A stretch of DNA of 64,000 nt from Deltaproteobacteria bacterium (lineage in GTDB: Bacteria; Myxococcota; Kuafuiibacteriia; Kuafuiibacteriales; Kuafuiibacteriaceae): assembly GCA_040218735.1 (NCBI GenBank), contig JAVJQW010000049.1, positions 32,001 to 96,000 on the forward strand. Direction: 5' to 3'. Of the stretch, positions 10,670 through 26,843 are shown piece by piece. Position numbers and translations under genes: made by a program. The notes below the pieces were generated by a model that was not told the DNA's origin, did no database searches, and saw nothing but the letters and a program-made list of their open reading frames with translations. The first letter of the stretch is position 1, and every line of letters starts with the position of its first letter.

Positions 10670-11398
10670 GTGAGCTTCGTGCTCGACCCGCCTTTGCACC
10701 TCGATCTGTCGGTGCCCTGTTCGCCCGAGCTCGCGGCCGAGCGGCTCGGTGCGCGGCTCACCGCGGTCGCGACGTTCGTGCCGGAGGGCTCGATCCCGGT
10801 CGACGTCGGCACCGACCACGCGCGGTTGTTGATCGCGTTGGTGCGTTCGGGGCGGTGTCCGACGGGCATCGGCGTGGACGTCGCGGAGGGGCCGTACCGC
10901 CGCGCGAAGCGTGCGGTCGCGGGCGCGGCGATGTCGCATCTGATCGCGGTTCGTCAGGGTGACGGGTTGGCGCCCGTCGATCCGGGGGAGGCGGACGTCG
11001 CGGTCCTCGCGGGCTTCGGCGGGCGCACGGCAAACGCGGTGCTCGCCGCGGCGTCCGATCGGCTCCCGATTCGGCGGTGGGTCGTGCAGGTGAACCGGGA
11101 CGTCCCCGCGGTGCGGCGTTCGTTCGAGGCGCGCGGCCTGGCGATCGTGGACGAAGCGTTGGTGTTCGACGACGGCCGGGTGTTCGTGGTGATGGCCGCG
11201 GAGGCGGGGGAGATGGCGTTGTCGGACGCGGACGCTTGGCTCGGTCCCAGGCTTCGTGCGGAGCGGTCGCCGTTGTTCGTCGCGTGGGTGAGGTCGCGGC
11301 GCGATCACCTTCGGGCGCTCGCGGCGAAGGGGCACCTGTCGGGCAAGTCGCGCGAGGAGCTGTCGATCGTCGAAGCGGAGCTTCCGGGTTCCTGCTAG
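10670..11398 (+). CDS. trmK: tRNA (adenine(22)-N1)-methyltransferase TrmK-like
   Basis: RLTAVATFV...DVGTDHARL...GVDVAEGPY...RQGDGL...LAGFGG; start uncertain. Confidence 0.8.
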   Translation: MSFVLDPPLHLDLSVPCSPELAAERLGARLTAVATFVPEGSIPVDVGTDHARLLIALVRSGRCPTGIGVDVAEGPYRRAKRAVAGAAMSHLIAVRQGDGLAPVDPGEADVAVLAGFGGRTANAVLAAASDRLPIRRWVVQVNRDVPAVRRSFEARGLAIVDEALVFDDGRVFVVMAAEAGEMALSDADAWLGPRLRAERSPLFVAWVRSRRDHLRALAAKGHLSGKSREELSIVEAELPGSC

Positions 11399-11410
11399 GC
11401 TCCGCGCCCA

Positions 11411-12232
11411 ATGGGTTACCGATGGTGGTGCGCGGCGTTCGTTCTGTTCAGCGCGAGCCCGGCGTACGCGGGTGGGTTCACGCAGGGCGAGGGCGGCTAC
11501 TACGTGAAGGCGTGGACGCGCTCGTTGATCGGCAACAAGGCGTTCGACACGGCGGGGGATCTCGTGGAGCTCCCGGAGTCGTTCTCGGACCACGCGTTGA
11601 ACGTCTACGGCGAGTACGGCCTGACGAACGACGTGACGTTGCTGATGTACGTCGTGCCGTTCGGCTACAGCGCGTACGGCGATCAGTCGCAGCTATACGC
11701 GGGGACGTTGTCGGTCGGGGCGCGGCATGCGCTGTGGTCGGGGTCGCAGCCGTTGGCGTTGGAGGTCCGCGCGGGCGGGCGTCCGGCGGTGGGTGACGAC
11801 CCGCTCGCGGAGGGGGTGCTCGACACGGGCCCCTACGTGGTGCGAGCGACCTTGCCGACGTTGTTCTTCGACGCGGAGCTGCAGGCGGCGGCCGCGTTGC
11901 CGTACGGGTTGTGGCTCTCTGCGGGGGCGGGCGCGCGGCTGCACTCGCGCGATGGGTTGTCGCCGGCGTTGTTCTCGAACCTGCAGCTCGGGTGGTCGTC
12001 GTCGTTCGGCTTGGTGCTCGACCTGCACGCGCAGGCGTACTTCTCGGTGGATCGGCCGGACATCATCGACGTGTTGGGTGTGGGCCAGACGGACTACATC
12101 GGCTTCGGTGTGGGCGCGGCGTACTGGATCACGGACGGCTTCGGCGTGACGTTGGGTTTCGACTCTGCGGCGCTCGCGCGTGCGAATGCGGGGACCGCGC
12201 CGATTCAGATCGGTGTTCAGCTCAAGGGTTGA
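11411..12232 (+). CDS. Outer-membrane beta-barrel protein
   Basis: Signal peptide AYA; alternating aromatic-rich beta strands (YGEYGLT, AAYWIT). Confidence 0.7.
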   Translation: MGYRWWCAAFVLFSASPAYAGGFTQGEGGYYVKAWTRSLIGNKAFDTAGDLVELPESFSDHALNVYGEYGLTNDVTLLMYVVPFGYSAYGDQSQLYAGTLSVGARHALWSGSQPLALEVRAGGRPAVGDDPLAEGVLDTGPYVVRATLPTLFFDAELQAAAALPYGLWLSAGAGARLHSRDGLSPALFSNLQLGWSSSFGLVLDLHAQAYFSVDRPDIIDVLGVGQTDYIGFGVGAAYWITDGFGVTLGFDSAALARANAGTAPIQIGVQLKG

Positions 12233-12269
12233 TTCGGGGGGCCGATAGCAGGGGGTGGAGGTCGTCCCC

Positions 12270-12605
12270 ATGTCGAACCCGAAAGACGCCAACTACCGCA
12301 ACCACCCCCGCGCCGCGGTCCGCTGGGCCGCCTACTGGACCGACGGCCTGCGCGCGCGCACCGGCGAGATCCGCGACATCTCCAAGGGTGGCCTGTTCCT
12401 GTCCCCGGCGTGGCGCCCGAGCACCACGTACAGCCCCGGCGACGAGATCGAGATCCGCTGCGCGATCGAGGATCTGTCGATCGACCTGAAGGCGGTCGTC
12501 CGCTGGTCCGGCACGAGCGAGCAGCACGCCTGCGAGGGCTTCGGCCTCGAGGTCCCGGCTACGGCGGACCTGGAGCGGCTGCTCGAGGCCGCCGAGAAGA
12601 ACTAG
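12270..12605 (+). CDS. Single-domain PilZ protein
   Basis: RxxxR (RNHPR) and DxSxxG (DISKGG) c-di-GMP motifs. Confidence 0.88.
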   Translation: MSNPKDANYRNHPRAAVRWAAYWTDGLRARTGEIRDISKGGLFLSPAWRPSTTYSPGDEIEIRCAIEDLSIDLKAVVRWSGTSEQHACEGFGLEVPATADLERLLEAAEKN

Positions 12606-13956
12606 AGGCGTCGTTCGCTCGCTGCGACGCGAGCACCCCGCCGATACACTCGCCGGTGACTTCGCCGACGACCCACCCCAGCGTTCCGAGCAGGAGCGTG
12701 AGCACCACCCGTCCGAACAAGACGCCCGCGACGATGCCGGCCTCGGTCGCGAGGCCGTGGGCGATCGCTTCGGAGGTCGTCGGTATCTCTTCGTCGGAGA
12801 GAAGGCGGGACAGCACCGTGACGACGATGAACTGCGCGAGGATCGTGAGCGCGGGGACGCCGACCGGCTTCATCACCACGCTGACGAGCAACGCACCGAC
12901 GACCGGGTACTTGATCGCGGGCGCGAGCCGGGTGCGCGCGAGGGCGAGCGCGGCGACAAACGAGAGGATGAGGCCCTCCATGTCGTTCGACTCGAGCGGC
13001 GTTCCGATGACTTGGCTGAGGCTGCGGTAGCCGCCGCTCATGAAGAGGAAGTAGGCGAGGGTCACGGTGACCGCGAGGATCGCGAGCACGTTGGTCACGC
13101 TGCGAATCAGCGGGTGGTCGGAGGGGATACCGGGGCGGTCGACGGTGGCGGGGCGAAAGGCTTCGACCGCGAGCCACAGCAGTCCGATGGACGCGAAGCC
13201 GAGGGCGATGAGTGAGATGGGTTTGGCGGTGACCGAGCCCGGGAGGCTGATGCCGACGCCAATCGACGTGACGACCGCCGTGTACTTCGCGAGGCGGGCC
13301 CCGTGTGGTCCGAAGGTGCCGTCGCGGCGGGTGACGGCTTCGGCGAGCGCAGGTTCGACGGCGATGCGCGCGTAGCGGAAGATCAGGACCGCGTTGAGCA
13401 TCACGACAGCGAACAGCGCGGCGACCTGCGTGGGTGGCAGCGGCGCGTCGATCTCTTGCATCACGACCGCGCCGACGCCCGCGCGGATGAACAGCGCCAC
13501 CAGCTGGATCACGAGGTACCCGAGGAAGCCGGTATTGAAGAGGAGGAACATGCCGAGCACGGCGACTGCGATGACGTAGCCGTTGCTCTGTCCGGTCGTG
13601 GCGGGGGGAGCGACCGCCGGTGGGGGTGTTGCGTCTTCACGTGTGACGGCGCCGTCGGTGGCGCTGACGTAGGTTCGTGCGTCGATCGTCTCGACGCTCC
13701 AGAACGGGAAGTAGACGAGCGGGAGCGTCGAGGTCGCGTCGATGACGACCCCTTCTGGAGCGCCCTCGACGAGCGGGCAGCGTGCGGGCAGCGGGAGCTT
13801 CGACGCCGGATCGCGGGGCGCCACGGCGGCGCGCTTCTTGTGGAGGATGAAGGGGATCCAGACGAGCTTCGTGACGTGCTCGGCGTCGGCGGGGACTCCG
13901 GCGACCGCGCGTGCAGCGTCGGCGTCGAGGTTGGGCGGTGCGTGGCGCGCGTTCAT
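12559..13956 (-). CDS. Polytopic membrane hypothetical protein
   Basis: N-terminal soluble domain (LVYFPFW..., VSATDG) followed by about 8 TM helices; ATG overlaps the upstream stop. Confidence 0.6.
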   Translation of the reverse strand: MNARHAPPNLDADAARAVAGVPADAEHVTKLVWIPFILHKKRAAVAPRDPASKLPLPARCPLVEGAPEGVVIDATSTLPLVYFPFWSVETIDARTYVSATDGAVTREDATPPPAVAPPATTGQSNGYVIAVAVLGMFLLFNTGFLGYLVIQLVALFIRAGVGAVVMQEIDAPLPPTQVAALFAVVMLNAVLIFRYARIAVEPALAEAVTRRDGTFGPHGARLAKYTAVVTSIGVGISLPGSVTAKPISLIALGFASIGLLWLAVEAFRPATVDRPGIPSDHPLIRSVTNVLAILAVTVTLAYFLFMSGGYRSLSQVIGTPLESNDMEGLILSFVAALALARTRLAPAIKYPVVGALLVSVVMKPVGVPALTILAQFIVVTVLSRLLSDEEIPTTSEAIAHGLATEAGIVAGVLFGRVVLTLLLGTLGWVVGEVTGECIGGVLASQRANDASSSSRRPRAAAPGPP

Positions 13957-14879
13957 GGCAGCCCCTTCGGCGCGCCGTGTTTCGAGCAGGTCGGCCCGGC
14001 GTTCGTCGAGTGGATGGCGCCGCCGTAGGGACACTCTCGAACCAGGAGCTGGTTGCTGTGGCAGCGTAGGATCTCTCCGTAGGAGGGGCCACCGAGCGCC
14101 ATGGCGACGGTCTGCGCGAAGCCGAGGTGGCTCGCGGAGAGCAACCAACCTCCGGAGGTGGTGATCGCGCCCGCGACGAGCATGCGCACAGCGGGGGATG
14201 CGAGCGGTCGCTCGGGGAGCTTCACGAGCGCGAGGGGTGAGCGACGGGTGCGTCGTGACCAGAGCCCGAGGAGCACGGCGAGCACGACGACCATCTGACC
14301 GAGGTCCCAGAGGGCGTCGGTCGGCCAAGGGCTGGGGGCGTCGGCGGGCGCTGCGGTTGGCGTGGGGTGCGCGTGACGAGGTCTACCGCGGTAGTCGACG
14401 GACCGCATGACGTCGCCGATGGTGTTGAATTCGATGCGTTTGCCGACGCGGCGTCCGTGGTCGAACTCGCCGCGCTCGGCGATCGCGCCGTCGGGGTACC
14501 AGTGCTCGTAGGGGCCGTGGCGGAGGCCTTCGTCGTAGTGGCCGACGTAGATGACGGCGCCGTCCTCGGCGTAGTCCACCCACCGCCCGGTGCGTTTGCC
14601 GGCGTTCATCTGTCCGACGCCGAAGACCACGGGCGGAACCGCGGTGTTGCGGATGTCGATCACGGGCCCGTGCAATCGTTGGTTGGCGTCGAGGCAACCG
14701 CGTCGCAGCGGGAAGGGGCCGTCGCGAACGGCGCCCATGTCCCATCGTTCGAGCTTCATCGTCGTGGGCGTCGTGCCGGGCGGGCACACGATCGGTGCGT
14801 CGGTGGCCGGCGCGCGGCTGGAGGTGTCCGTCCCGCCGCACGCGTGGAGGAGCACGAAGGCGGGGACCCAGCGGCGCAT
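13953..14879 (-). CDS. Lipoprotein with MORN-variant (YwqK-like) repeats and C-terminal TM region
   Basis: LHAC lipobox; GKRTGRWVDY, GLRHGPYEHWYPDG and GRRVG repeats; TATCGT 7 nt before ATG. Confidence 0.7.
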   Translation of the reverse strand: MRRWVPAFVLLHACGGTDTSSRAPATDAPIVCPPGTTPTTMKLERWDMGAVRDGPFPLRRGCLDANQRLHGPVIDIRNTAVPPVVFGVGQMNAGKRTGRWVDYAEDGAVIYVGHYDEGLRHGPYEHWYPDGAIAERGEFDHGRRVGKRIEFNTIGDVMRSVDYRGRPRHAHPTPTAAPADAPSPWPTDALWDLGQMVVVLAVLLGLWSRRTRRSPLALVKLPERPLASPAVRMLVAGAITTSGGWLLSASHLGFAQTVAMALGGPSYGEILRCHSNQLLVRECPYGGAIHSTNAGPTCSKHGAPKGLP

Positions 14880-15031
14880 GCGCGCGACGATAGCACCGAG
14901 CGGGCGGCACCGTGGGCCTGGCCGCCAGGTCAGCGAGCACCTTGGCGACGGGTGGAGCGTGCCGGTACGATTCCGTATCCACCTTGCCGAATGCGGGTGA
15001 ACCGTTCGCGGGAAGCCAAGGTGATTCTCAC

Positions 15032-15949
15032 GTGAACTCACTGGAGTCGACGATCGCCGCGATTCGAGAAGCGGGCCTTGTCGCGCGCCGATCTCCAGAA
15101 GGTGGCAACTGCATTGTCGGCGGCCTTCGCGAGACGTTGACGCCTGACGGCGTGCAGCTGGCCGAGTATCCCTTCGTTATTTCGCCCGACCACGACGGTT
15201 GGCGCCTTCGGACCACGCATGTCGGACGCGGTGAGTTGGAGACGACCCACGGCACCCTGTCCGAACTGTTGCAGGCGCTGAAGGTGTGGAGCGAGGAGCG
15301 GAGGCGCGAGAGAATGGCGCCGTTGGGCGAACGCGCTTCAACTTGGTTCGTCGATCCACCCCTCGCCGAGGCCAGCGTGTCGATGGCCTTCGCACCACTG
15401 GAGGCGTTGGGCCTCTTACGGAGCTTCGACTCGGACTTGATATGGCTCAGGCAGTTCAGTCGTTTCGGTGGCAGAGAGCCGACCGTCGTCCTCGAGCCTC
15501 CCAACACGGCTTGGACCGATGTCTCGGAGGGCGAGAGCGACGTCGGCCCGTACATCTTTGGTCGAATCTGTGTCGACGACTTGAGCGATGATCAGCTGCT
15601 CACTTTTGTCACGCGATCGAGCTTCGGTGTTGATTCGCTGATTGTGGCCTGGGGTACGAGCGACGTTGCTACAGGAATCTCGGACCTCCGCCGTGTTCTC
15701 GAGGAGCGCCGCGCCGCCAAGAGGCTCCCGATCGAAGAGTCGCTTCAGCGTCGCTTCATTCGCAGGGTTCTGGCCGTCGAAAAGTCCGGAGGTTTCATCG
15801 TGACGGCAGTGCGGGGGGACACTGCGAGGTTCATGCTGATCTTGACCGGTGCTTCGATGATCGGGACGGTCCTCCGCAGTCACGGTGTCAGCCCCATCTC
15901 CGCCATCCCACGCGACGAGATCGGATACCGTGTCTCGCCGATATTCTAG
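15032..15949 (+). CDS. Hypothetical protein (orphan cassette, possibly immunity-like)
   Basis: Open frame with atypical, AT-richer codon use; flanked by the island repeat motif. Confidence 0.6.
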   Translation: MNSLESTIAAIREAGLVARRSPEGGNCIVGGLRETLTPDGVQLAEYPFVISPDHDGWRLRTTHVGRGELETTHGTLSELLQALKVWSEERRRERMAPLGERASTWFVDPPLAEASVSMAFAPLEALGLLRSFDSDLIWLRQFSRFGGREPTVVLEPPNTAWTDVSEGESDVGPYIFGRICVDDLSDDQLLTFVTRSSFGVDSLIVAWGTSDVATGISDLRRVLEERRAAKRLPIEESLQRRFIRRVLAVEKSGGFIVTAVRGDTARFMLILTGASMIGTVLRSHGVSPISAIPRDEIGYRVSPIF

Positions 15950-15959
15950 TGTCACTCGC

Positions 15960-15981
15960 GTGATCGATCCTCGGAATCCAC
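15960..15981 (+). repeat. REP-like island motif copy
   Basis: GTGATCGATCCTCGGAATCCAC; 19/22 identical to the copies at 19605 and 21556. Confidence 0.8.
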
Positions 15982-16004
15982 GATGACGCCGCCAAGGCGA
16001 TAGA

Positions 16005-16346
16005 ATGCTGGTCGATGTACTCCAGAGCAGGCTGGCGCCGATCTTGACTGACTACGCATGGTCTTTTGAGAAGGGCATTGCGGTGATGCACTTTCTTCAT
16101 CAGTACCACGTGGTCTTTGAAGATGGATTCAGCATGAATGGCGACAGACACAATGAAGTGCTTGGCTTTGCGGAGGCATCGGAGTTGGTCTCTCGGCTAT
16201 GCGGCAATCCGAAAAAGTCTCCAACGTGGTGGAAGTCGCGTGCGCCCGCAGGGTTGGTCTCGTCCAGGAGACTTGCTGATCTTCTGGATGAACTCGTCGT
16301 CTTGTTTGAGTTCGATCCGGGGGTGCGAGGCGTGAGTGCTGATTGA
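16005..16346 (+). CDS. Small hypothetical protein (orphan immunity-like cassette)
   Basis: 113-aa ORF with AT-richer codons lying between two motif copies. Confidence 0.55.
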   Translation: MLVDVLQSRLAPILTDYAWSFEKGIAVMHFLHQYHVVFEDGFSMNGDRHNEVLGFAEASELVSRLCGNPKKSPTWWKSRAPAGLVSSRRLADLLDELVVLFEFDPGVRGVSAD

Positions 16347-16348
16347 AA

Positions 16349-16418
16349 AGAAGTGAACCATATTCTGCGAGAAGACCGCGAAGTGACCCAGGAGAAGTGA
16401 GCCATGTTCTGGAACCAG
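16349..16418 (+). repeat. Stuttered degenerate copies of the island motif (GAAGTGANCC x3)
   Basis: GAAGTGA at 16350, 16380 and 16394; GAGAAGTGAGCCATGTTCTGGAACCA aligns with GAGAAGTGATCCATCCTCCGGATCCA. Confidence 0.65.
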
Positions 16419-19294
16419 CGTGGAGACGTTCTGGTGGCGCACGCGCATCTTCAGACTGGTGAGTCCGGCGTCGGGTCGCCGACCGCGCTGCGGAGCTTCG
16501 CCTACGACTCGGGCCACCGGCTCACGTCCATCACTATGCGTGACCTGTCGACCGTGACGTTCGGGAACTTCCATCCGGTGCACCAACTGCCGCAGACGAT
16601 GAGGATGGCGTCCGCGGGGTCGATCAACTCCAGCTACAACGACCGTGGTGATCTGGTGAGCCTGACGACCGTCGACGGTGCCTACTCGGAGACCAACACG
16701 TATGTCCAAGATGCGCTCGGGCGTCCGCGTCGAGCCGACATTGCGAACGGGGCGAGCGTGGAGCTCGATAAGGATCCCAACAGGGGGGCGTGCAGCACGT
16801 CCGCGACTCTGCGGGGCGCCTCGAAAGCCTGACATACGCGGGAAGCGCGATGATGTCGGTGTCGGACTATGCGATGGCCTCGGCCCCGGGTACGGTGGTC
16901 CTCGGCAACGGCGTGGACCGTGTAGACGACTACGATCAGCGACGTCGACTGGTCAGCCGGACGTACGTGCAGGGCGGCAACATCGTCGCATCGTTTCGTT
17001 ACGCGTATGACAGCGCGAACCGAGAGGTCGCTCGGGTGGATGTCCATCGCGCGGGTCGCGCGAACCTCTACAGCTACGACCAGGAACGCCTGGGTACGGC
17101 GAACATCGGCGCGCGCCCGACAGTGTTCGGCTCTCTCCCGACGAACGGTGACTTCGGGGTGGGCGATGCGCACTTCACGTCGGTCTACGCACCGATCACG
17201 TTCGACGATCGCCTCCAGGAAGTGGTCACTCAGGTACCCGTGGGCGAGTCGACGCCTGAGATCGCGGAGCTGTACCAGGGCTACGACGCGATGGGCCATG
17301 CGACGCTGCTCGACGGGGTTGCGCGGACGCGAGACTCACTCGGTAACGTGACGTCGACGCCCTCCGAACAGGGCACGCTCGCCCTGGACTACGACGTCCG
17401 GTCGCGCCTGCGACAGGCGACGCGCCCCGACGGGTCGACCGTCACGTACGATTACCGTGCCGACGACGCGCTCTTGGGGCGCACCGTGACTTGCGCCGTG
17501 GGGGCGGCGGACTGCGTGGACTCGAACCGAGTGTACGTCTACGACGGGCTGCTCTTGCTCCAGGAGCACGAGCAGGGCGCAACGCCCTCGCTGCGCGCGC
17601 AGTACTTCTACGCCGATGAGGGCGACGTACCGTTCGCGGCGGACCTGTGGAACGCGACGACGCAGCAGCTGGAGCGCTACTACTACGTCGTCGATCGCAT
17701 GGGCTCGGTGGTGGGCTTGATGGACGCGTCGGGGCAGGTGGTCGAGCGCATCGACTATACGGTGTTCGGGTACCCGCAGATCACGGGGCAGGACACGGCC
17801 GCTCCGGCGGTCTCTTCGGTGCGCAGTGACGGGAGCGGTCGCTTGGAGCTGGTGTTCTCGGAGCCGGTAGACCCGGCGGTGTCGGGGACGCCGGTGCCGG
17901 TGTCGAACGGTCAGGTGGGCATCGAGGTCAATGACCTGACTTCTCACATCACCGTGCGTGACGGGCAGGGCGCCACGGTCGCGGTGACCGACGTGACCGT
18001 GGTGTCGGACGCGGCGCATCGGTACGGAACGGTGTACTCCTTGACGACCACGCCGCTGGCCGCGGGGATCTCTTATACGGTGGACGTGTCGGCGGGCGCG
18101 GTTCAGGACGCTTGGGCGAACTTGAGCTCTGCGCAGGCCGTGACGGTGACCTACGCAGCGGCGGCTGGGACGCTGCAGGCTACGGGGACGGTGGCAGGCA
18201 GCACGGCGCCGGCGGTCTTGGCGAGGAGTGCGGTCGGGAACTCGATCGGGTTCCAGGCGCATCTGCATGACTGGGACGTGGACTTGGTGCTGGCGAGGGC
18301 GCGGGTTTATGACGCGCGGTCGGGGATGTTCCTGCAGAGGGACCCTGAGGGGTATGAGGATAGCGTCAACCTGTATGCCGGGATGCGGTGGGATCCGGTG
18401 AACCTGAGGGATCCGACGGGACGGGCGACGGGTGACCCACGGTTCTACATGTCGCAGGCGCTCGGGCAGCTCATCGAGTTCTTCACGGGAGGCCGTGCGG
18501 ATCCCGCACGGGACAAGAAGCCGAAGCTCAGTGGGCGCGGTGGTGTGGTCGGGGGTGCAGTGGAGGCCGCTTGCTTCCGGTGCGGCTACCTTGAGTCGGA
18601 CAGGACGGGCCTGAGTTCGATCGGTGCGGATCACGGCGCCGGGATGGTGCCGTACCTCGACTCCGGAATGACTCTTGCGACTGGCGAAGATGTGCAAGGT
18701 CGAGAGGTTGGGCGGGGAGAAGCGGCGCTTCGGTTTGGACTTGAGGTCTTGCCCCTGGCTGTTCCCGCAACGCGACGCCTTCGTAGCGGGCCCAATCGCC
18801 GAATCGCATCGGGTGACCTGAGTCTCGCCGCGACCGATGAACTGCCAGGTGCGGCGGTGTTCACCAAGGAGGCCGATGAATTCGGAAGAAACGCGCAGAA
18901 GGCAAAGCCCGTTGACGGGTACACGGATATTGCTCTTCATGGTGGAGACGACTTTGTGTCTCAGGTCCCGAATCCGAGACTCGACGAGAAGATCTCGTCG
19001 GATCAGTTTGCCCGGTTGCTGAAGCGGTCGCCGTCCTACAACGGAGGTCCTATCCGCCTTATCGCCTGCGATACCGGATCGTGCGCTACGGGGTTCGCCC
19101 AGCAACTATCCAATGCGCTGGGTGTTAGGGTTCGTGCTCCATCGACCTATGTGTGGGCATTGCCGGATGGTACCCTCTTTGTTGCGGACCCTGTTAGGGT
19201 TCTGGTTCGCGGCCCGTCTGGTCTTGGAGTTCGGCAACTTCCAGTAGCCGATCTCACGAAGCCTGGGACGTGGGTCGATTTCGATCCGGAGTAA
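16404..19294 (+). pseudogene. rhs: N-terminally truncated, frameshifted RHS-repeat toxin with caspase-fold (clan CD) C-terminal protease domain
   Basis: YD repeats in both ORF 16404-16832 and ORF 16790-19294; core RARVYD..SGMFLQRDP and PVNLRDPTG; C-terminal DIALHG...IRLIACDTG; frame change at ~16775-16790. Confidence 0.85.
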
Positions 19295-19295
19295 C

Positions 19296-19577
19296 TTGGC
19301 TATGCTTCCCGCATCTCTGTGCTTCCTAGAAGCCTGGGTAGAACGCTTCGGTTGCCTGACCGAGACTGCGTCCTTTGCGAAAATTCATGAAGAGGCAACA
19401 GACGATGAACTTGAGCGGCTGTCTCAGATCATGACTGAACTGCTCATGGGTCGGCCTCTATCACTTCAGGCTGCGTTTCTTGCATTGGATGAGGTACAGG
19501 ACGAAGAGGTGAGGGTGAGAGCCACGTCACTTCTCTGTGCGATTCTACCGCGGATGGGTCAGGGGAGCGAGAAGTGA
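19296..19577 (+). CDS. Putative immunity protein for the RHS C-terminal toxin
   Basis: Small acidic ORF starting 1 nt after the RHS stop. Confidence 0.6.
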   Translation: MAMLPASLCFLEAWVERFGCLTETASFAKIHEEATDDELERLSQIMTELLMGRPLSLQAAFLALDEVQDEEVRVRATSLLCAILPRMGQGSEK

Positions 19578-19599
19578 TCCGGAGAAGGGATCCAAGGAG

Positions 19600-19775
19600 G
19601 AGAAGTGATCCATCCTCCGGATCCACTGAGTAGATTCTCGTTGCTCTGATTTGTCGTAACGCAGAAATATCGGAAGGGCTCTTGAGGGCGAGAAGTGATC
19701 CATCCTCCGGATCCACTGAGTAGATTCTTGTTGCTCTGATTTGTCGTAACGCAGAAATATCGGAAGGGCTTTTGA
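19600..19775 (+). repeat. 90-bp tandem duplication, each unit starting with the REP-like motif
   Basis: 19600-19689 vs 19690-~19775 nearly identical; motif GTGATCCATCCTCCGGATCCAC at 19605 and 19695. Confidence 0.95.
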
Positions 19776-19921
19776 AGGGGATTTCCTCTTCTTCTTAGCC
19801 GCCGTCTGAGGCCCTTCGCGAACCCGTGCCCGAGCGCGCTGCGCTCCTCCTCCTGAACCCTCTCTGTCGCTTCGTGGTGGGCCCGTCCGGGCCTGAACTC
19901 ATCCCTCAAGATCAGCTTCGC

Positions 19922-20836
19922 TCACGCGGCCGCGGCGGCCTCGACGGGCCATCGGAGTGGCAGCCTTGGCCTGAAGGTGTGCTCGGGGAAGTAGGTCCCG
20001 AGTCGCCCTTTTCGGAACGCCGCGCTGGCCTCTCTGTAGGTCATGACGAACCACCGCCACCCATCGCGGAACGCCATCCAGGCATCGCGGGTGGATGCGT
20101 GACAGAGGGGCGCAGGTCCGCGCTTGGTGCGCTCGGGCTCGTGGAGCGGGTCGGTCGCGAGGACGGTCTCGACGCCGAGGACGTCGCCGCTGCGGTCGCG
20201 TGCGAGTCGGTCCTCGCGCTGATGGATCGCCGCGCGAACGTCTTCGAGGTCGAGGGTGTCGTCGGTGTCGAGGTGGAGCTCGACGCGCTCGGTGAAGTCT
20301 TCGCGGGAGGGGACTTCGTCGCCGAGGCGCATGGCGCGGTCGAAGGCGCGGCGGTATCGCTTCCAGTGAAAGCGCGCGCAGGGAAGGGTGACGGCTTGGC
20401 CGCCGCACCAGGCGACGAGTCCCGGCCAGTCGCGGTGGGAGCGCACGAGGCCGGCGGCGGGGGGATTGGTGACGGTGTAGACGATGCGGTTGGCGAGCGC
20501 TTCGTCGTCGACGATTTCGATCGCGGAGTAGCGCCGCTCGAGGACTTGGCCGCGCACCTGGTCGACGGCGTTGAGGGCTCGGGCGAGCTGACCGTCGAGG
20601 TACTCCATGAGGTCGGCGAGCTGGGAGCGCTCGTCGGTGAGGACGAGGTGAAAGTGATTCGACATCTGGACGGCTGCGTGAAGGCGCACGCCGTCGCATC
20701 GCTTCAGGGCCTTGGCGAGGAAGAACTTGAAGAGCTCTGTGCGGTCGATGTCGGGCGTGAGTCGGAACTGGGATCGCGCGCATCGTACGGTGACGAACCA
20801 ACGTGCGCCGGGCGTGAGTCTTCTTGGTCTTCGCAT
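19922..20836 (-). mobile_element. REP-associated tyrosine transposase (RAYT / Y1 HUH, IS200-like TnpA fold)
   Basis: WFVTVRC, HUH motif MSNHFHL, RGQVLERRY, catalytic Y in IVYTVTNPPAAGLV...DWPG; 304 aa. Confidence 0.88.
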
Positions 20837-20849
20837 GCGCGAGGGGAAG

Positions 20850-20865
20850 AGCAACGCTCGCGCCG
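20850..20865 (-). promoter_or_regulatory. Sigma-54-type -24/-12 promoter for the RAYT gene
   Basis: Minus strand CGGCGCGAGCGTTGCT = GG-N10-GC with TTGC, 14 nt upstream of ATG. Confidence 0.6.
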
Positions 20866-21104
20866 TCCCGTCCGCGGTGTGTCTTGGTCGACGGTCGTCC
20901 GATAATCGGACTTCGTCCGAAGCTGTCCGAAAGTCGAAAGTGTTTCGGTCATCCCGCTTTGCGTGTGGCGCGCCACCCCCGCCCACCCGCGGGTCCGTCG
21001 GCTCGAGCGGATGGTTGATGCGGGGGGCGGAGTCGCTTTGCTTGCGGAACTGCCTCGCCTCCGATGGGGGCCCGCTGCGGGGTCCCGGGCCGTCGAAACC
21101 CCCG

Positions 21105-21144
21105 GCCACGACGGAGCCGCAACCGTCGAGCCGAAAGGCCCGCC
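21105..21144 (+). repeat. 40-bp structured direct repeat, copy 1
   Basis: GCCACGACGGAGCCGCAACCGTCGAGCCGAAAGGCCCGCC; 38/40 identical to 21795-21834. Confidence 0.85.
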
Positions 21145-21555
21145 TGTGCGAGCGCCTGGCCCGTACCGAGCGAGTCGCCCGCACATCCTCGCTTCGCGAA
21201 GGGGCGTCCGCCACCGCCCCTCGGAGGCCCGCTGCGCGGGCCTAGAAGAAGAGGGGCCGCCTCGCCGCGCTTGCTGTCGCGGGTGCCGTAGGTCGGGGAT
21301 CGCTGCTGCAGGGCAGCGACCCGGACCTCGACGTCTGAGGGTTTGGTCACCGCTCTCGCTGAGCGTCTTGCTGCCCCGCTGGTCTCCGCTATCGACGACG
21401 ACGACGACAGCAACCGTAAGCCTGTGAAGCTGTCCGCGGCAACCTGTCGACGCGCACGGTGATGACGAACGGTGGTGGGTACGCAGAGACCGACCCCAAC
21501 GAGGACGGCTCGGTGGCGCGGCTGACATATCCGCGGACGAGCGGCGTGGTGACGC

Positions 21556-21577
21556 GTGAACCATCCTCGGGATCCAC
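21556..21577 (+). repeat. REP-like island motif copy
   Basis: GTGAACCATCCTCGGGATCCAC; 20/22 identical to 19605. Confidence 0.85.
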
Positions 21578-21794
21578 TGCGGCGACGACGGCGTCGAGTC
21601 CGTCGTCCTCGTTGCCGTGGGCGAGGACCGCGAGCTCGGGCTTCTGTCTGGCGGCTTCGCGATCTCGGGTCCAGGCGTGGCGCGCGGTTGCAGGACGAGA
21701 GGCTGGAACAAGGAAGTCGCCTGGGACGATGGAGATCGGGTCGTGTCTGCGAATGGGAATCGGCGCATCGACGAAATCGGGATCGAAGAAGCGC

Positions 21795-21834
21795 GCCACG
21801 ACGGAGGCGCAACCGTCGAGCCGAAAGTCCCGCC
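21795..21834 (+). repeat. 40-bp structured direct repeat, copy 2
   Basis: GCCACGACGGAGGCGCAACCGTCGAGCCGAAAGTCCCGCC. Confidence 0.85.
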
Positions 21835-21845
21835 GCCGCCGAGGC

Positions 21846-22141
21846 CTAATGCAGCCGGTCGTGCCAGTAGTCGGGGTGCTGCTTGAAGTGCGCGAAGGCG
21901 ACGATGATGGGCTCGCGTCGACGAAGGCGATGAGGATCTTGTAGGGGAAGCGGTCGACGATGAAGCGTCGGACCTCGGCGTCGACGCCTGAGAGCTGGGT
22001 TCCCGCTCGCGGGAACCGCTCGGCAAACCGAACACGACGGTCGACGGTGCGCGCGAATCGGTCAGCGGTGCTTGGGCTCTCGGCTCGGAACTCGAAGGCG
22101 GCGGCCTCGTACTCGAGGACGGCCTCTTTGAGCCACTTCAC
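21846..22141 (-). pseudogene. RelE/ParE-family toxin with a single-base frameshift
   Basis: N part ...FPRAG...VRRFIVDRFPYKIL; the canonical C-terminus IIVAFAHFKQHPDYWHDRL* is in another frame after ~21915. Confidence 0.8.
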
Positions 22142-22377
22142 GAAATAGGCTCTTCGAGCTTCCTCAATAGGTCGCGCTGAACGTCCTCGTGGTCGACCGT
22201 CTCGGCCTCGCCTGTGCGGAGGGCATCGATTCTCTTTTGGACGGTCTCTCGGAGCTCGGGCTCCAGCTCGGGTGGCTCCGTCGAGAGGTGCTCGATCAGC
22301 GTATGAGCCGTGAGTTCCTGCTCCTCGCGTTTGAGCGCGAGGGCATCCGCGATGACCTTCAGCACGTCTCCGGACAT
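22138..22377 (-). CDS. Addiction-module antitoxin (TIGR02574-like)
   Basis: ALALKREEQ...LIEHL...RIDALRTGEAETVDHEDV; its stop overlaps the toxin GTG; TAGCAT 7 nt before ATG. Confidence 0.85.
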   Translation of the reverse strand: MSGDVLKVIADALALKREEQELTAHTLIEHLSTEPPELEPELRETVQKRIDALRTGEAETVDHEDVQRDLLRKLEEPIS

Positions 22378-22752
22378 GCCGCGCATGCTAGCGACCCGGG
22401 GTGTACTTTCCAAGCCCGAAAGTGATGACGTGCCGAGTCCTGTGCCTTCTGGTTTGATGGTTCTATGTATATTTACAATATTACACTAAGTGTTTGATGG
22501 GGCGATCGTGACGCGGCGTCATCGGACGAGTAAGGCGCACCCGGCGACCGCACGGACCCGGAGGGCTTTGCGGCGCTGCTCGATGCAGACGACGGATTGG
22601 ATGCTCATACGGATTCGCTCCCCCGAAGGTGCAGCTGATCGAGCGGTCGGTGGACGCTTTCATCGCTTGGTGCGACCAGCGCGGCGTGGTGCGCCCGAGC
22701 CAACGTGACGCGCCCGGTGCTGCAGCGGTACGCGCGACATCTACCGCTAGAC

Positions 22753-22774
22753 GTGATCCATCCTCCAAATCCAC
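22753..22774 (+). repeat. REP-like island motif copy (right island edge)
   Basis: GTGATCCATCCTCCAAATCCAC; 20/22 identical to 19605. Confidence 0.85.
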
Positions 22775-23041
22775 GTACGACCCCCGCTACGACGGGCGCC
22801 GGCGTACGACCACGGCGGGCGGCCTACTGACGACGGCGCACGCCGGAGTGTTGCGCGTGAATCGCCAGGCGAGCAGCGCCGGTCGGGGTTGGTGATTGAC
22901 CGGGTGCTCGACGCGCATCGCCGCGAGTCTGGTACTGGCGTGCCCACGTCCCCTCGCACACACTGGCGTTTTCGGCGAACGGCGGTCGGCGGGCTCCAAA
23001 CCGCTTGCCCCGCCGCCACAAAGACGCCACGAATCACGGCC

Positions 23042-23704
23042 ATGCCGACCGTCGAGATCACCGACGCCAACTTCGAGTCCGCCGTGTTGCAGTCGGAGCT
23101 GCCGGTGCTGCTCGACTTCTGGGCGACGTGGTGCGCGCCCTGTAAGGCCGTGGCGCCGGTGCTCGAGGAGCTTTCGGAGCAGTACGCGGGGAAGTTGGTC
23201 ATCGGGAAGCTCGACGTGGATGCGTCGCCGCAGACGGCGCAGATGTTCGGGATTCGTTCCATCCCCACGCTGGTGCTCATGGACCAGGGCAAGCCGGTGA
23301 AGGCCGTGCAGGGGGCGCAGCCGAAGGAGGCGCTCGTGGAGCTGATCGAGTCGAACGTCGCCGGGCTGCGCGCGCCGACCGTGAAGCCGGAGGAGCTGGC
23401 TGCGCTGATGCAGCGCGGGATGCCGATCGTCGTGTTCGACCTTCGCGACCCGCGCGACGTTTCGCGCAGTCACTTGCGGCACGCGAAGACGGTCGCCGCC
23501 GACGCGTTGCCCGCGGCGATCGCCGAAGCGGATCCGCGGTCGCTCGTCGTGCTCGTGTGCCGGACCGGAGAGATCTCTTCGGAGGCCGCGGCGAAGATCG
23601 GGCAGCCGAACGTCGTCGCGATCGAGAAGGGCCTCCTCGAATGGGAGGGCGCCGGGTTCGAGACTTTCAGCGACCGCGAGGAAGCCGAGCTCGACGCCGG
23701 CTGA
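23042..23704 (+). CDS. Thioredoxin-rhodanese fusion protein
   Basis: DFWATWCAPCK, FGIRSIPT; then DLRDP...SHLRHA...VLVCRTGEIS...KGLLEW rhodanese domain. Confidence 0.9.
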   Translation: MPTVEITDANFESAVLQSELPVLLDFWATWCAPCKAVAPVLEELSEQYAGKLVIGKLDVDASPQTAQMFGIRSIPTLVLMDQGKPVKAVQGAQPKEALVELIESNVAGLRAPTVKPEELAALMQRGMPIVVFDLRDPRDVSRSHLRHAKTVAADALPAAIAEADPRSLVVLVCRTGEISSEAAAKIGQPNVVAIEKGLLEWEGAGFETFSDREEAELDAG

Positions 23705-24223
23705 TCAGCGCATCGCAGGGATCGCGTCGGGGCGGGCGAATCGATCGCGCAGGACCGCGAGCTCGTCGCGACGCACCTCGACGGAGCGACCGTTCTCGAG
23801 ATCCTCCAGCACCAAGCTCCCGTCTTCGCTCAGACCGCCGCGGCCGATCTCCACACCGTCCGCGAGGACGCGGAAGCTCTCGGCTTCGCGCTCGAGCCGG
23901 TACTCGCGGTCGCCGACCTGCACGACCACGGCGTCCTCCGACTCCGACTTCACTTGCGCCGTCGCTCCGCCGCCGAGCGGGTTGGAGCCCGTCCAGAACT
24001 CGATCAGGTTGAAGATGATCGCGTCGCCGAGCGTGATGAGCTCGTAGACCGGGATGATGACCAGGACCCAGAACACGATCGTGTTGAGGAACTTGTTGCC
24101 GAGGCTTCCGTTCCAGGTGTGCAGCTTCTTCGTGAGCGCGAAGCTCCCGTAGCAGCCGGTCGTGCCGACCGTCGCACCGGTGATCGTCGTAGCTGCGAGG
24201 AGAGCGATGAGGCGTTTGTTCAT
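23705..24223 (-). CDS. DUF3332-family lipoprotein
   Basis: GCYGSFALTKKLHTWN...IPVY...DAIIFNLIEFWTGSNP. Confidence 0.85.
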   Translation of the reverse strand: MNKRLIALLAATTITGATVGTTGCYGSFALTKKLHTWNGSLGNKFLNTIVFWVLVIIPVYELITLGDAIIFNLIEFWTGSNPLGGGATAQVKSESEDAVVVQVGDREYRLEREAESFRVLADGVEIGRGGLSEDGSLVLEDLENGRSVEVRRDELAVLRDRFARPDAIPAMR

Positions 24224-24324
24224 GCGGCGCGGTATGCCGCGTGGGGACGCGCCGTCGCCATACACGACGCGGCGCTTTTGTATTCGTCCGGAGGGTGGGC
24301 GACAACCCGCGGTGGGGTCAGCGA

Positions 24325-25851
24325 TCAGACACCGTCGACGAGGCGCTGGATCTCCATGAGCGCGTCGCGCGCGGTGGCCGCTCGGGTGAGCTCGGCGCGC
24401 ATCGTGTCGAGGTCGGCCTGGAGCTGATCGCGCGCGGCACCGAGGTCCGCGATGCGACCCTCCGCGAGCTGCAGCTCCGCCGTCGTCGCCTCCAGCGCGT
24501 CCTTGAGCTCGGCGCCCTGCGCGCGGGACTTCGCGAGGGCCTCGTCCTTGTTCTCGAGCTCCTGCTCGAGCGCGCCGAGCAGCTCGCGCTGACGCTGGTC
24601 GAGCTCGGTGAGCTCCGTGATCCGATCGAGGACGCGGTCGCGCTCCTCCGCGAGCGCCTCCGACTCCTCGATCAGCTCGTCCGCGACCGCCTGCCGCTCC
24701 GTCGCGAGCGCCTCCGCCTTCTCGCGAGCCTTCTGCTCCGCGTCGAGGCGCTGCGTCAGCTCCGCGACGCGCCGGTCACGCTCCGCCAGCTGCTCGGCGA
24801 GCTTGCGCTTGTCGACCTGCGCGGTCTCCAACGCCTCGCGGAGCGAAGCCACGGTCTGACGCACACGCGACGCCGTCGCGGCCGGCGCGGGGGCTGGCTC
24901 CTCGGTGCGCTTCGCCGCGACCGCGAGGCGAGCCTTGAGGGCGTCGATGCGAGCGCGACCGGACTGCACGACGTCGGCCGCCGGGACCTCGAGGAGGGGG
25001 CGTCGGGAGGACGGCGGCGTGGTGGCGGCCGCGGGCTGCGCAGTGGTGGGGGAGGTCGCCGATGGGGGCGTCGGCGCGGCGATGGGGGCCTGCGCGGATG
25101 CGGTGGGTGCGGGCGCAGCCTGGGAGGCCGACGCGGGCGTCGGTGCGGATGCTGGGGCCGCCACAGGCGTGGACGGGGATGCGGTGGCTGCCGGTGTCGT
25201 GGCCGGGGCCGATGCGGCGCCGGACGCCGGTGGTGGTGAGGCTGCGGGGGCCGAGGCCGGTGACGGCGCCGGGGCTGCGGTCGCAGCGGGGACGCTCGCG
25301 GATGCCGAGGCGGACTCGGTCGCGGCTATGGGCTCGGGTTCGGACGCAGACTCCGGTGCGGCCACGGAACCGGACGCGGCCACGGAACCGGACGCGGACT
25401 CGGAATCGGACGCGGCCACGGAATCGGACTCGGAATCGGACTCGGAATCGGACTCGGAATCGGACTCGGAATCGGACTCGGCCACGGAGTCGGACGCGGA
25501 CACGGACGCGGACACGGACACGGTTGCGGACGCGGACTCGGGTGCGGCCACGGACTCGGACGCGGACACCGCCTCGGGTTCCGTCACCGCCTCCGGCACC
25601 GGCACCACCTCGGCACTCGCGGGCACCTCCGCCTTCGCCGCGGCAACACGCCCCGCGTCCTTGCTCTTACCCCTCGGCGCCTTGGCTCGGGCCTTCGCCT
25701 TTTCGGGACCCGGACCGGAACCGGGACCCGGACCGGGTGGGGTGGGGAGCTCCGACGGGACCTCGTCGCTCACGGGCAGGTCCGCGAGCATCGTGCCCAG
25801 GCGGGTGCGCGGCTTCTTCTTCGAGACGTTCTTCGAAAACGCGGACTTCAT
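24325..25851 (-). CDS. pomX: PomX-like ATPase-activating coiled-coil scaffold
   Basis: N-peptide MKSAFSKNVSKKKPRTRLG resembles the Myxococcus PomX N-peptide; Ala/Pro-rich linker; C-terminal coiled coil; lies downstream of pomZ. Confidence 0.8.
   Translation of the reverse strand: MKSAFSKNVSKKKPRTRLGTMLADLPVSDEVPSELPTPPGPGPGSGPGPEKAKARAKAPRGKSKDAGRVAAAKAEVPASAEVVPVPEAVTEPEAVSASESVAAPESASATVSVSASVSASDSVAESDSESDSESDSESDSESDSVAASDSESASGSVAASGSVAAPESASEPEPIAATESASASASVPAATAAPAPSPASAPAASPPPASGAASAPATTPAATASPSTPVAAPASAPTPASASQAAPAPTASAQAPIAAPTPPSATSPTTAQPAAATTPPSSRRPLLEVPAADVVQSGRARIDALKARLAVAAKRTEEPAPAPAATASRVRQTVASLREALETAQVDKRKLAEQLAERDRRVAELTQRLDAEQKAREKAEALATERQAVADELIEESEALAEERDRVLDRITELTELDQRQRELLGALEQELENKDEALAKSRAQGAELKDALEATTAELQLAEGRIADLGAARDQLQADLDTMRAELTRAATARDALMEIQRLVDGV
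25419..25478. repeat. 12-bp tandem repeat CGGAATCGGACT x5 (SESD)n within a longer degenerate tract
   Basis: Five perfect copies seen; degenerate units extend over ~25330-25570. Confidence 0.95.
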
Positions 25852-26843
25852 TGCATCTGCTCCGTGGCTACCGGCTCCGGCTGGGACGGCGTGACTTGGG
25901 CCGTCGCCGGGGCGTGGATGGCGTCGATCATGGTCTGGACGTCGGCGGCGCCCTTGCTCGACGGGTCGAACAGGAAGATCGGCGTGCCCTCGCTCGAGGC
26001 CTGGGCGAACGTCGTGCACTGCCGGACCACCTCCGGGAGCAGGTACTCCGGATAGTGCTCCGCCAACGCGTCCCGCGCGGCGCGGGCGATCTTCGTGGTC
26101 GGGTTGAACTGGTTGATCACGATGAAGACGCGCTCGAGGCGGTGGTCGAGATCCTCCGCGATGTCGTCCAGCGTCTCGAACAACAGCTTCAAGCCGTGGA
26201 ACGACAGGAAGTCCGGCAGCACCGGCACGATGAGATCGTCGGCCGCCACAATCGCGTTCAGGTTCAACAACCCGAACGAGGGCGGGGCGTCGAGCACCAC
26301 GTACTCGTACTCGTCCTGCACCGCCGCCAACGATCGCTTCAAACGATTCTCGCGGTTCGACATCGGCATCAGCGACAGGTCCACCGTCGCCATGCGCAGG
26401 TTCGACGGAATCAGATGCAGCTCCGGGATCTCCGTCTCGATGCGGACCTCCGCCATCGGGACCTTCTTCACGAGGACCTCGAAGAGCGTCGCATCCTGCT
26501 CCTCGCCGTCGTAGCCGACGCACTTCGTCGCGTGGCCCTGCGAGTCGAGGTCGATCAGCAGCACGCGGTGCCCCAGCTCCGCCAGGCGCTGCGCGTAGGA
26601 CACCGACAGCGACGTCTTCCCCGTTCCACCCTTGAAGTTCAGGAACAGCTGCGTCCGCAGCGGCTGCCGCGCGGGTTGCCGCGCGAGCCGCGCGCGGTAA
26701 CGCGAGAGGTCACCGAGCGGATAGGTCTCCTTCGGGCCGCCGAGCTCCGACAGCACGCCGACGCGCTCCAGCGTCTCCAGCTCGTCGACCGACATCGACA
26801 GCAGCTCCGCCATCCGCTTCTTGGGGTACGTCACGTCCTCCAT
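25848..26843 (-). CDS. pomZ: ParA/MinD-family ATPase PomZ
   Basis: QLFLNFKGGTGKTSLS, IDLDSQGHATKC, DAPPSFGLLNLNA and DFLSFHGLKLLFET; N-terminal HTH-like extension. Confidence 0.9.
   Translation of the reverse strand: MEDVTYPKKRMAELLSMSVDELETLERVGVLSELGGPKETYPLGDLSRYRARLARQPARQPLRTQLFLNFKGGTGKTSLSVSYAQRLAELGHRVLLIDLDSQGHATKCVGYDGEEQDATLFEVLVKKVPMAEVRIETEIPELHLIPSNLRMATVDLSLMPMSNRENRLKRSLAAVQDEYEYVVLDAPPSFGLLNLNAIVAADDLIVPVLPDFLSFHGLKLLFETLDDIAEDLDHRLERVFIVINQFNPTTKIARAARDALAEHYPEYLLPEVVRQCTTFAQASSEGTPIFLFDPSSKGAADVQTMIDAIHAPATAQVTPSQPEPVATEQMQ

Follow-up and report, generated by a model that had tools for sequence, protein, structure and literature searches.

A 22-bp motif is found in five or six copies beside a truncated Rhs toxin gene, in a window of 64,000 nucleotides from a Deltaproteobacteria bacterium (contig JAVJQW010000049.1, positions 32,001 to 96,000, referred to here as C29:32001-96000). 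The genome is 11.6 Mb in size, with a GC content of 68.8% in 70 contigs, and all of the copies fall within 6.8 kb of it. The motif is a locus-private, sharp-edged and co-oriented repeat, and this repeat is real, unusual and tied to the boundaries of modules in an Rhs island. As a tentative explanation, the motif may represent a recombination joint that is private to the locus, with the copies making up a fossil array in a decaying island of Rhs and mobile-element genes, and the enzyme responsible would have been a tyrosine-type recombinase rather than one of the HUH type. Here we infer both the origin of the joints by site-specific rather than short-homology recombination and the identity of the enzyme.

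For Rhs and other polymorphic toxins, the prevailing view is that tips and immunity genes are exchanged through homologous recombination within the conserved core. What determines the downstream edge of such a toxin module is rarely considered, and it is at this edge, as well as at the edges of other units, that the private site of 22–29 bp is found here. If a recombinase does act at the motif, then the exchange of toxin and immunity genes in these large soil and marine genomes would gain a site-specific component, parallel to integrons and to the rAID-1 arrays of gut Bacteroidales. If not, the locus is a case for caution, in that a palindromic repeat located beside a gene that resembles a RAYT (a tyrosine transposase associated with repetitive extragenic palindromes, REPs) is not thereby a REP, a question that is quickly decided by counting across the whole genome.

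A private repeat and its copies

The window was scanned with an IUPAC pattern taken from an earlier, sequence-only reading of this DNA, allowing up to three mismatches and with 100 shuffles as the control. Five matches were obtained, all on the plus strand, at 15960 (one mismatch), 19605, 19695, 21556 and 22753, which are numbered copies 1 to 5, and none of the shuffled windows (0/100) contained any match. The five same-strand copies reported by that reading are therefore confirmed. When both strands of the genome were scanned at the same threshold the same five copies were returned and nothing more. Measured against the 22-mer consensus, the Hamming histogram of the genome contains two sites with no mismatch, two with 2, one with 3 and none with 4, followed by 19 with 5, 99 with 6 and 808 with 7, and a clear gap thus separates the five copies from the background. 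The sequence-only reading had seen no copies elsewhere in the window; this holds, and it extends to the whole 11.6-Mb genome, in which no copy with up to four mismatches to the consensus is present outside the island. The motif is not scattered across the genome, and its copies are confined to the island.

Searches beyond the locus gave at most isolated matches, at the level of chance. Amongst relatives, single two-mismatch matches are found in only 3 of 40 genomes, and a scan in which each of 185,579 species was represented by a single genome returned 13 single matches in unrelated taxa, where about 17 are expected (18 fixed bases, 596 Gb). A scan of metagenomes gave 27 loci, none of them related, and the sole locus with two copies proved to be a longer coding repeat on a contig of 49% GC. 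Within the genome itself, motif-like matches with 5–6 mismatches near other integrase or RAYT-like genes are at chance level. The best profile match outside the island (E 0.13), a 21-mer at C46:40514-40534 that equals copy 1 minus one base, lies inside an argC-like coding region and is probably due to chance, although no other near-copy exists outside the island.

Three degenerate copies had also been proposed by the sequence-only reading, at 14997, 16353 and 16397, and only the last of these stands. As a 22-mer the site at 16397 has six mismatches (0.47 such sites expected in the island), but as a 29-mer that includes 7 nt of left flank it is one of just two six-mismatch matches genome-wide, both of which are in the island. 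Its acceptance as a sixth, degenerate copy is thus supported; the left part of the site agrees at 15 of 16 positions and the right part at 8 of 13. The site at 14997 has seven mismatches to the IUPAC pattern, a level at which 3,802 matches occur in the genome and 2.7 are expected in the island, and is not above chance, whilst 16353 has more than eight mismatches to the pattern.

The sequence shared between copies is sharply limited. In pairwise local alignments it extends from about -7 to +24, the exception being a 90-bp tandem duplication that carries copies 2 and 3. The motif can be read from its sequence as two arms of 7–8 nt around a centre of 6–7 nt, and the centre, ATCCTC, is the same in all five strong copies, whereas the arms vary. 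Two arms with a spacer between them is the layout of the core sites of tyrosine recombinases.

It is very unlikely, in our estimation, that the motif is instead a regulatory site that travels with the modules and has no role in recombination, in which case two direct GATCCA half-sites, 13 nt apart, would act as an operator, or the motif would be an RNA element with a Shine–Dalgarno/anti-Shine–Dalgarno pair. A half-site pattern, GAnCCA-N7-RAnCCA, is indeed present in 5 of the 6 accepted copies (in copy 1 the left half-site is GATCGA), five of the seven occurrences of its loose form in the genome are in the island, and several copies are positioned just upstream of starts or just after stops. 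However, the neighbours of copies 4 and 5 are dead gene fragments, which leaves these copies nothing to control, and a promoter and terminator scan placed no such site at any copy. Nor did Rfam provide a match for the motif, the only hits being two chance-level matches that resemble snoRNAs.

Module edges and a second strain

That the motif falls at joints between unrelated units was an observation of the sequence-only reading, and it is borne out by annotation (Table 1). The homology of two gene fragments ends at, or 2–9 nt from, a motif copy. An unnamed gene fragment aligns with its C23 paralogue as far as query residue 95 (21578-21580), which is the codon adjoining copy 4, and for an integrase stump the match, as mapped with tblastn, comes to within 2 nt of the left end of copy 5 in its 29-mer form.

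Further information on the edges comes from strain comparison. Parts of the island are present in 11 public runs, and the contigs of four of these runs, from three studies (X2, X3, X5 and X6), were aligned to positions 11000-27000. The contigs of X2, X5 and X6 leave 18476-19009 uncovered, a gap that no contig spans, and run X3, a sponge metagenome by its label, is the sole informative second strain. A 41-kb contig of X3 matches the window over 11000-13178, with one 330-nt replacement, after which 13179-16458, the region that holds ORF1, ORF2 and two motif copies (ORF, open reading frame), gives way to a segment of 26,619 other letters. Presumably this segment contains the missing 5' part of the Rhs gene. 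The match returns over 16459-18420, with 111 extra letters at the site of the window's Rhs frameshift (16768/16771), and is then lost again, as 1,443 other letters replace 18421-19599, the Rhs C-terminal toxin together with the segment in the position of an immunity gene. At 19600, which is 5 nt ahead of copy 2, the match sets in again. The stretch 19689-25323 is spanned by a second contig of X3, and the 149 differences seen there include one more motif copy, 21 nt long, behind 19708 and an additional C at 21915. The window is backed by the X2 contigs at this last position, and its frameshift at 21915 is therefore not an assembly error. Given the 111 letters and the single C that X3 has in addition at the two frameshift sites, the Rhs gene and the gene of the antitoxin's partner may both be intact in X3 and broken here.

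The last position of the Rhs core, which closes with DPTG, is 18420, and a tip of 290 aa is encoded by the C-terminal toxin region behind it, 18421-19294. From the replacement of 18421-19599 in X3 it therefore follows that the toxin tip and the small ORF behind it are a strain-variable module, the left edge of which is the end of the core and the right edge the motif. The RAYT-like unit, the toxin–antitoxin pair, the stump and copies 3–5 are common to both strains. As to the exchange of cargo between motif copies that the sequence-only reading had envisaged, the variable tip/immunity segment ends near the motif, but its left end is at the Rhs core and the second large difference lies off the motif. 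No motif-to-motif difference was seen between the strains, and no motif-to-motif joint, as would result from excision or deletion, is present in the contigs of X2, X3, X5 and X6, which speaks neither for nor against recombination at the motif as contigs drop rare variants.

The locus has much in common with other Rhs polymorphic-toxin loci. It encodes YD repeats and a core domain, the tip and the next small ORF (putatively for immunity) are strain-variable from the core end onwards, the cargo is of low GC, and mobile-element genes are nearby. It differs in that the Rhs gene is truncated and frameshifted, in that the orphan units of ORF1 and ORF2 have no Rhs similarity and contain no piece of Rhs core, and in that a private 22–29-bp repeat, not core homology, is found at the downstream edges.

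In a somewhat improbable alternative, the motif would serve only as a short anchor of homology. As the first conserved sequence downstream of the Rhs C-terminal toxin and immunity genes, it would provide the short right arm in a RecA-type exchange that uses the core as a long left arm, and copies would pile up through illegitimate joins and duplications. The variable segment does begin where the core canonically ends (18420) and reach to the motif, as in an ordinary exchange of Rhs tips, both the 90-bp tandem duplication and the 21-nt tandem copy show that local duplication takes place, and an intact recombinase is absent from the contig. Such an exchange leaves unexplained why units without Rhs core (ORF1, ORF2 and the toxin–antitoxin unit) are also bounded by the motif, why homology stops at the motif edge in two cases, and why the similarity has a sharp limit at about 29 bp.

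A recombinase remnant and the RAYT-like gene

If the joints were made by site-specific recombination, then one short site downstream of the Rhs toxin gene would have been the place at which unrelated DNA segments were joined successively. The motif would form the downstream edge of an exchangeable module of Rhs C-terminal toxin and immunity gene, with the DPxG end of the core as the upstream edge, and would also edge the two orphan ORFs, the RAYT-like insertion sequence (IS) and the toxin–antitoxin pair with its gene fragments. A circle with one site would insert at the resident site, which would leave its cargo between two co-oriented copies, whilst aberrant events with secondary sites would generate half-good sites and truncated neighbours. 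The array would by now be a fossil, the only trace of a recombinase being the frameshifted 5' stump that abuts copy 5 and most of the cargo being broken. Repeated site-specific recombination is favoured because the site is private and has sharp edges, because its copies are co-oriented and combine a constant centre with variable arms, and because one copy is half-good, as a hybrid of a site and a secondary site would be, and homologies stop at the motif. The replacement in X3 that ends close to copy 2 and the lower GC content of the cargo also count in its favour.

A search of 5.8 billion proteins with the stump gave a single match, P0001, a protein of 357 aa with Pfam integrase domains (E 1.1e-4, 76% identity). 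The remainder of the stump gene was not found in the window or the genome by tblastn. At three other Rhs loci of the genome (C36:1-6000 and C37:1-22000) the core is followed by a variable tip/immunity stretch of 2–2.8 kb and then by a tyrosine-recombinase gene on the opposite strand; the recombinase genes share about 91% nucleotide identity and the conservation starts at the recombinase stop codon. The genome that harbours the closest homologue of the Rhs gene, G008, contains a repeat of about 110 bp with inverted ends (L107 on contig C84, at 4285-4400 and 4702-4816; L120 on contig C49, at 3441-3549). This repeat follows the immunity-position ORF of the homologue and brackets a 60-codon orphan copy of that Rhs, and it also occurs about 470 nt downstream of an integrase that is 53% identical to P0001 and belongs to the family of the stump. 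The three Rhs loci with an adjoining tyrosine recombinase and the G008 repeat near an integrase point the same way.

Several points weigh against such a fossil array of tyrosine-recombinase joints. The evidence base is one locus, one informative second strain and cargo that is mostly dead, and in that strain the other large difference resumes at 16459, which misses the sixth copy by 41 nt on its right, whilst the additional motif copy deviates in the centre that is otherwise invariant. On its left the strain-variable module is bounded by the end of the Rhs core rather than by a motif copy, and homologous exchange with a conserved downstream flank could equally give a difference that ends at the motif. 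The contig has no intact recombinase, as none of the 13 PF00589 matches of the genome is on C29. Because the stump breaks off at codon 85, its native att site cannot be copy 5 in the present state, and none of eight loci of stump-family relatives (0/8) has a similar motif nearby at up to six mismatches. Moreover, the arms of the motif are one base out of register, and the motif can equally be read as the direct half-sites mentioned above, an arrangement that is untypical of core sites.

The truncated genes that abut the motif on its left (the integrase stump) and on its right (the unnamed fragment) could also be accounted for if the motif were the end or the footprint of a small mobile element that has escaped recognition and struck several genes at this locus, be it a miniature inverted-repeat transposable element, an IS-like element or one of the one-ended rolling-circle type, with adjacent deletions truncating the neighbours. 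The 110-bp repeat of G008, with its inverted ends at the junctions of Rhs fragments, is in keeping with this. Such an element is nonetheless improbable, as there are no more copies in the genome or in public collections, no terminal inverted repeats, no shared internal sequence beyond 29 bp and no visible target duplication.

To return to site-specific joints, the closest functional analogues are the exchange of Rhs tips and immunity genes and the rAID-1 arrays of Bacteroidales, the latter as presented in the available part of their description (10.1101/471110). There, rAID-1 arrays begin at the 5' end with a XerD-like gene that is intact, contain as many as 31 immunity genes in the same direction, and are said by the authors to be reminiscent of integrons. 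The available description shares with the island an array linked to interbacterial toxins, a skewed GC content, repetitive intergenic sequences and a position beside a tyrosine recombinase, but here all that is left of a recombinase, and one from another family, is a dead stump located 3' of the array, and the units are few and of mixed orientation (10.1101/471110). Of the rAID-1 features, low-GC co-directional units (ORF1, ORF2 and C-terminal toxin with immunity ORF) and a repeat are present in the island; an intact recombinase is not. In the pdif/dif modules of Acinetobacter plasmids, so far as the available text of PMC6449649 and PMC13141974 describes them, modules that include toxin–antitoxin pairs are likewise bounded by short, imperfectly palindromic sites and the recombinase is not inside the module, but dif is a 28-bp XerC/XerD site common to many plasmids, whereas the motif is private to one chromosomal locus. 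Tandem integrative elements at a single att site offer a further parallel, with unrelated units in succession, each between direct repeats of a short core, and with the remains of an integrase at one end; the units here are, however, far smaller (0.09–3.2 kb), only one has a trace of an integrase, and there is no tRNA or recognisable attB gene (the window contains no tRNA genes).

An integron-like cassette array, as suggested by the sequence-only reading, is not upheld, as the contig contains no intI-type gene and the sites have neither the length nor the fold of attC. The attC sites of integrons are 57–141 bp in length, longer imperfect palindromes that fold as single strands, against 22 bp without a stable single-strand fold here. 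The resemblance lies in co-oriented sites right after the stops of unrelated ORFs and in cargo that varies between strains at one site boundary, whilst a further difference is that gene fragments are part of some island units, which lie on the other strand. The locus may work like an integron without being one by membership. A more ambitious proposal, and a doubtful one, is that the island belongs to a chromosomal system of Rhs toxin–immunity cassettes in Myxococcota, in which a core-type site unlike attC would close the cassettes and a dedicated tyrosine recombinase would insert and excise circles, trapping other cargo such as toxin–antitoxin pairs, IS elements and gene fragments along the way. 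Such a 'toxin integron' would have an evolutionary origin separate from integrons and from the rAID-1 arrays of Bacteroidales.

In the sequence-only reading the capture or shuffling of cargo was tentatively attributed to the HUH enzyme encoded within the island. The ORF at 19922-20836 on the minus strand matches NCBIfam NF047646 (REP_Tyr_transpos) with E 8.4e-15 and 54.9 bits, under the cut-off of 80, and Pfam Y1_Tnp with E 0.066. The translation has an HFH triplet and a Y..TNP stretch, which we take to be the HUH and tyrosine motifs. Judged on these matches the gene is RAYT-like, with a predicted place in the IS200-like Y1 HUH superfamily. RAYT genes are typically present as one copy per genome and are vertically inherited. 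In this genome there is one close copy, plus five at about 30% identity, and the family is present in 104 of 401 genomes of the phylum, often in multiple copies. In genome G011 (L043, L074 and L075) three RAYT-like copies, with 83–89% nucleotide identity over 0.8–1.3 kb, form IS-like units that measure about 1.3 kb and all contain a TGA in frame. A repeat lies upstream of these copies and its inverse downstream, and all five copies of the repeat in that genome at 0–1 mismatch adjoin these genes. The same layout of inverted flanks is found in G019 (L141) and G004 (L139), with a TGGCACC core in common with G011; in gene orientation the family flanks are GGTGCCA upstream and TGGCACC downstream.

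This core is not found in the window between 14801 and 23100. Instead, a different inverted pair of 16 nt (19785/21239) that contains CCTCTTCTTCT brackets the RAYT-like gene; the 11-mer CCTCTTCTTCT occurs 12 times in the genome, and two of these occurrences flank the gene. Because the gene has an inverted pair of its own, and because the nearest 22-mers (19695 and 21556) are co-oriented and 205 and 719 nt away from it, it looks like an IS-like passenger. Most likely, then, the RAYT-like gene belongs to a passenger IS that brings inverted ends of its own, and is a bystander to the motif.

The fold of the motif gives little to the idea of a REP. The bulged hairpin and the GTGG start described in the sequence-only reading fared differently, in that the minus strand does begin with GTGG but the fold is weak, no better than shuffles and not maintained. 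For single copies the folding energy lies between -2.6 and -5.2 kcal/mol (z between -1.4 and +0.6 against shuffles), and in three of three variant strong copies (copies 1, 4 and 5) the substitutions at positions 5, 7 and 15-16, read directly, break stem pairs and are uncompensated. The only stable hairpin of the array is formed by 19567-19631, which comprises copy 2 and a motif-like site ('d') preceding it, at -12.8 kcal/mol (z -3.16, with 0/200 shuffles as stable).

As described in the accessible parts of PMC3733652 and PMC5581495, REPs are high-copy dispersed palindromes (PMC3733652), and only those RAYT groups whose flanking 16-mers have 57–140 occurrences across the replicon count as REP-associated (PMC5581495). 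The motif is private to the locus, and thus it is not a REP. In common with REPs and their doublets (REPINs) in the accessible parts of PMC3337134, PMC3733652 and PMC5581495, it is a 22-bp imperfect palindrome with a GTGG start on one strand, adjoins a RAYT-like gene and could form one inverted doublet. It differs from those descriptions in having 5–6 local copies where REPs have tens to hundreds of dispersed ones. In addition, the fold here is weak and uncompensated, the copies that flank the gene are co-oriented rather than inverted, and the gene has other inverted flanks. The link between the motif and the RAYT proposed by the sequence-only reading is accordingly not supported, on the same counts: few and local copies, weak folds, co-orientation near the gene and a different inverted pair around it.

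Recognition of the motif by the RAYT-like HUH enzyme as a REP-like hairpin, with capture and shuffling of cargo, is hence most improbable. It has in its favour an intact RAYT-like gene inside the array that is conserved in X3, the GTGG start of the minus strand and the one doublet that folds significantly, to which may be added that HUH rolling-circle elements capture gene fragments. Against these stand a motif that is not dispersed, single hairpins no better than shuffles with pairs lost in every variant copy, co-oriented copies at a distance from the gene, and homologues that, with their TGGCACC-core inverted flanks and ~1.3-kb IS-like units in G011, have ends of another kind.

As a separate observation on the integrase family of the stump, the locus L122 (G011:C1:6126000-6145999) contains an 8.1-kb tandem duplication with 95–100% identity and a P0001-like integrase in each copy.

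Contents of the island

The features of the island are collected in Table 1.

Table 1. Features of the Rhs island in window coordinates
Feature	Position	Strand	Remarks
ORF1, 305 aa, orphan	15032..15949	+	GC 0.63; no Pfam or NCBIfam family; no genomic paralogue
Motif copy 1	15960..15981	+	10 nt after ORF1 stop, 23 nt before ORF2 start
ORF2, 113 aa, orphan	16005..16346	+	GC 0.54; no family (Pfam, NCBIfam)
Sixth motif copy, degenerate 29-mer (22-mer from 16397)	16390..16418	+	Left half near-perfect, right half poor; overlaps ATG of Rhs fragment
Rhs gene, N-terminally truncated, frameshifted near 16790	16404..19294	+	YD repeat (TIGR01643); TIGR03696 Rhs_assc_core, E 6.4e-13
93-aa ORF in immunity-gene position (putative)	19296..19577	+	Stop codon inside 19574-19595; no family; function inferred from position only
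Motif-like site 'd' (GATCCG-N7-GATCCA)	19574..19595	+	7 mismatches; alone not significant
Tandem duplication of 90-bp unit (motif and 68-nt AT-rich spacer)	19595..19774	+	96% identity (blastn); contains copies 2 (19605-19626) and 3 (19695-19716)
IS-like unit with RAYT-like gene 19922-20836	19785..21254	-	Inverted 16-nt arms, 19785-19800 and 21239-21254
40-nt direct repeat	21105..21144 and 21795-21834	+	95% identity
Motif copy 4	21556..21577	+	Pattern and consensus scans
Internal fragment of unnamed gene family, ~90 codons	21578..21850	-	BLASTP to contig C23 paralogue (L069), E 2e-6
Toxin–antitoxin pair	21847..22413	-	Antitoxin 22138-22413 intact (PF09720, E 7.7e-6); partner 21847-22141 frameshifted near 21915, upstream-overlapping
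Tyrosine-recombinase 5' stump	22505..22743	+	Residues 6-85 of 357-aa relative P0001; three frames
Motif copy 5	22753..22774	+	268 nt upstream of thioredoxin gene 23042-23704

The GC content is 0.63 in the ORF1 unit, 0.54 in the ORF2 unit and 0.60 in the unit of C-terminal toxin and immunity ORF, compared with 0.69–0.71 in the flanks. The lower-GC island described by the sequence-only reading is hence real for these three units but not for the RAYT and fragment units, which are at 0.68. An AT-rich stretch lies between the toxin–antitoxin pair and the recombinase stump. Apart from the weak match on C23, no paralogues of the island, as DNA or as protein fragments, were found in the genome with blastn and tblastn. 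The boundary of the island could not be set by synteny with a genome of the same genus, G001, where the thioredoxin flank is 81% identical but the upstream neighbour is another one and the contigs are short.

Neither of the two orphan ORFs has a usable match in the ESM Atlas; the Atlas model of ORF1 has a pLDDT of 0.43, and for ORF2 there is no confident fold and no paralogue in the genome. The Rhs protein is 42% identical to the Rhs of G008, in an alignment that starts at residue 244 of that incomplete protein. Some identities suggested by eye were not sustained. The segment to the left of copy 4 (21459-21555) had looked like a YD repeat, but in BLASTP its match to the Rhs of G008 did not go beyond E 0.056. 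The fragment to the right of copy 4 had been considered as an Rpn/YhgA-like nuclease, but PF04754 has no match to the C23 paralogue and NCBIfam gave only low-complexity FliH-like matches. Likewise, no family was found for the partner of the PF09720 antitoxin, which had been taken for a ParE/RelE-like toxin. Finally, the 40-nt direct repeat has an internal stem of 6 bp and no other copy in the genome, and of its two sites one is upstream of the RAYT-like gene and the other follows the frameshifted ORF of the toxin partner.

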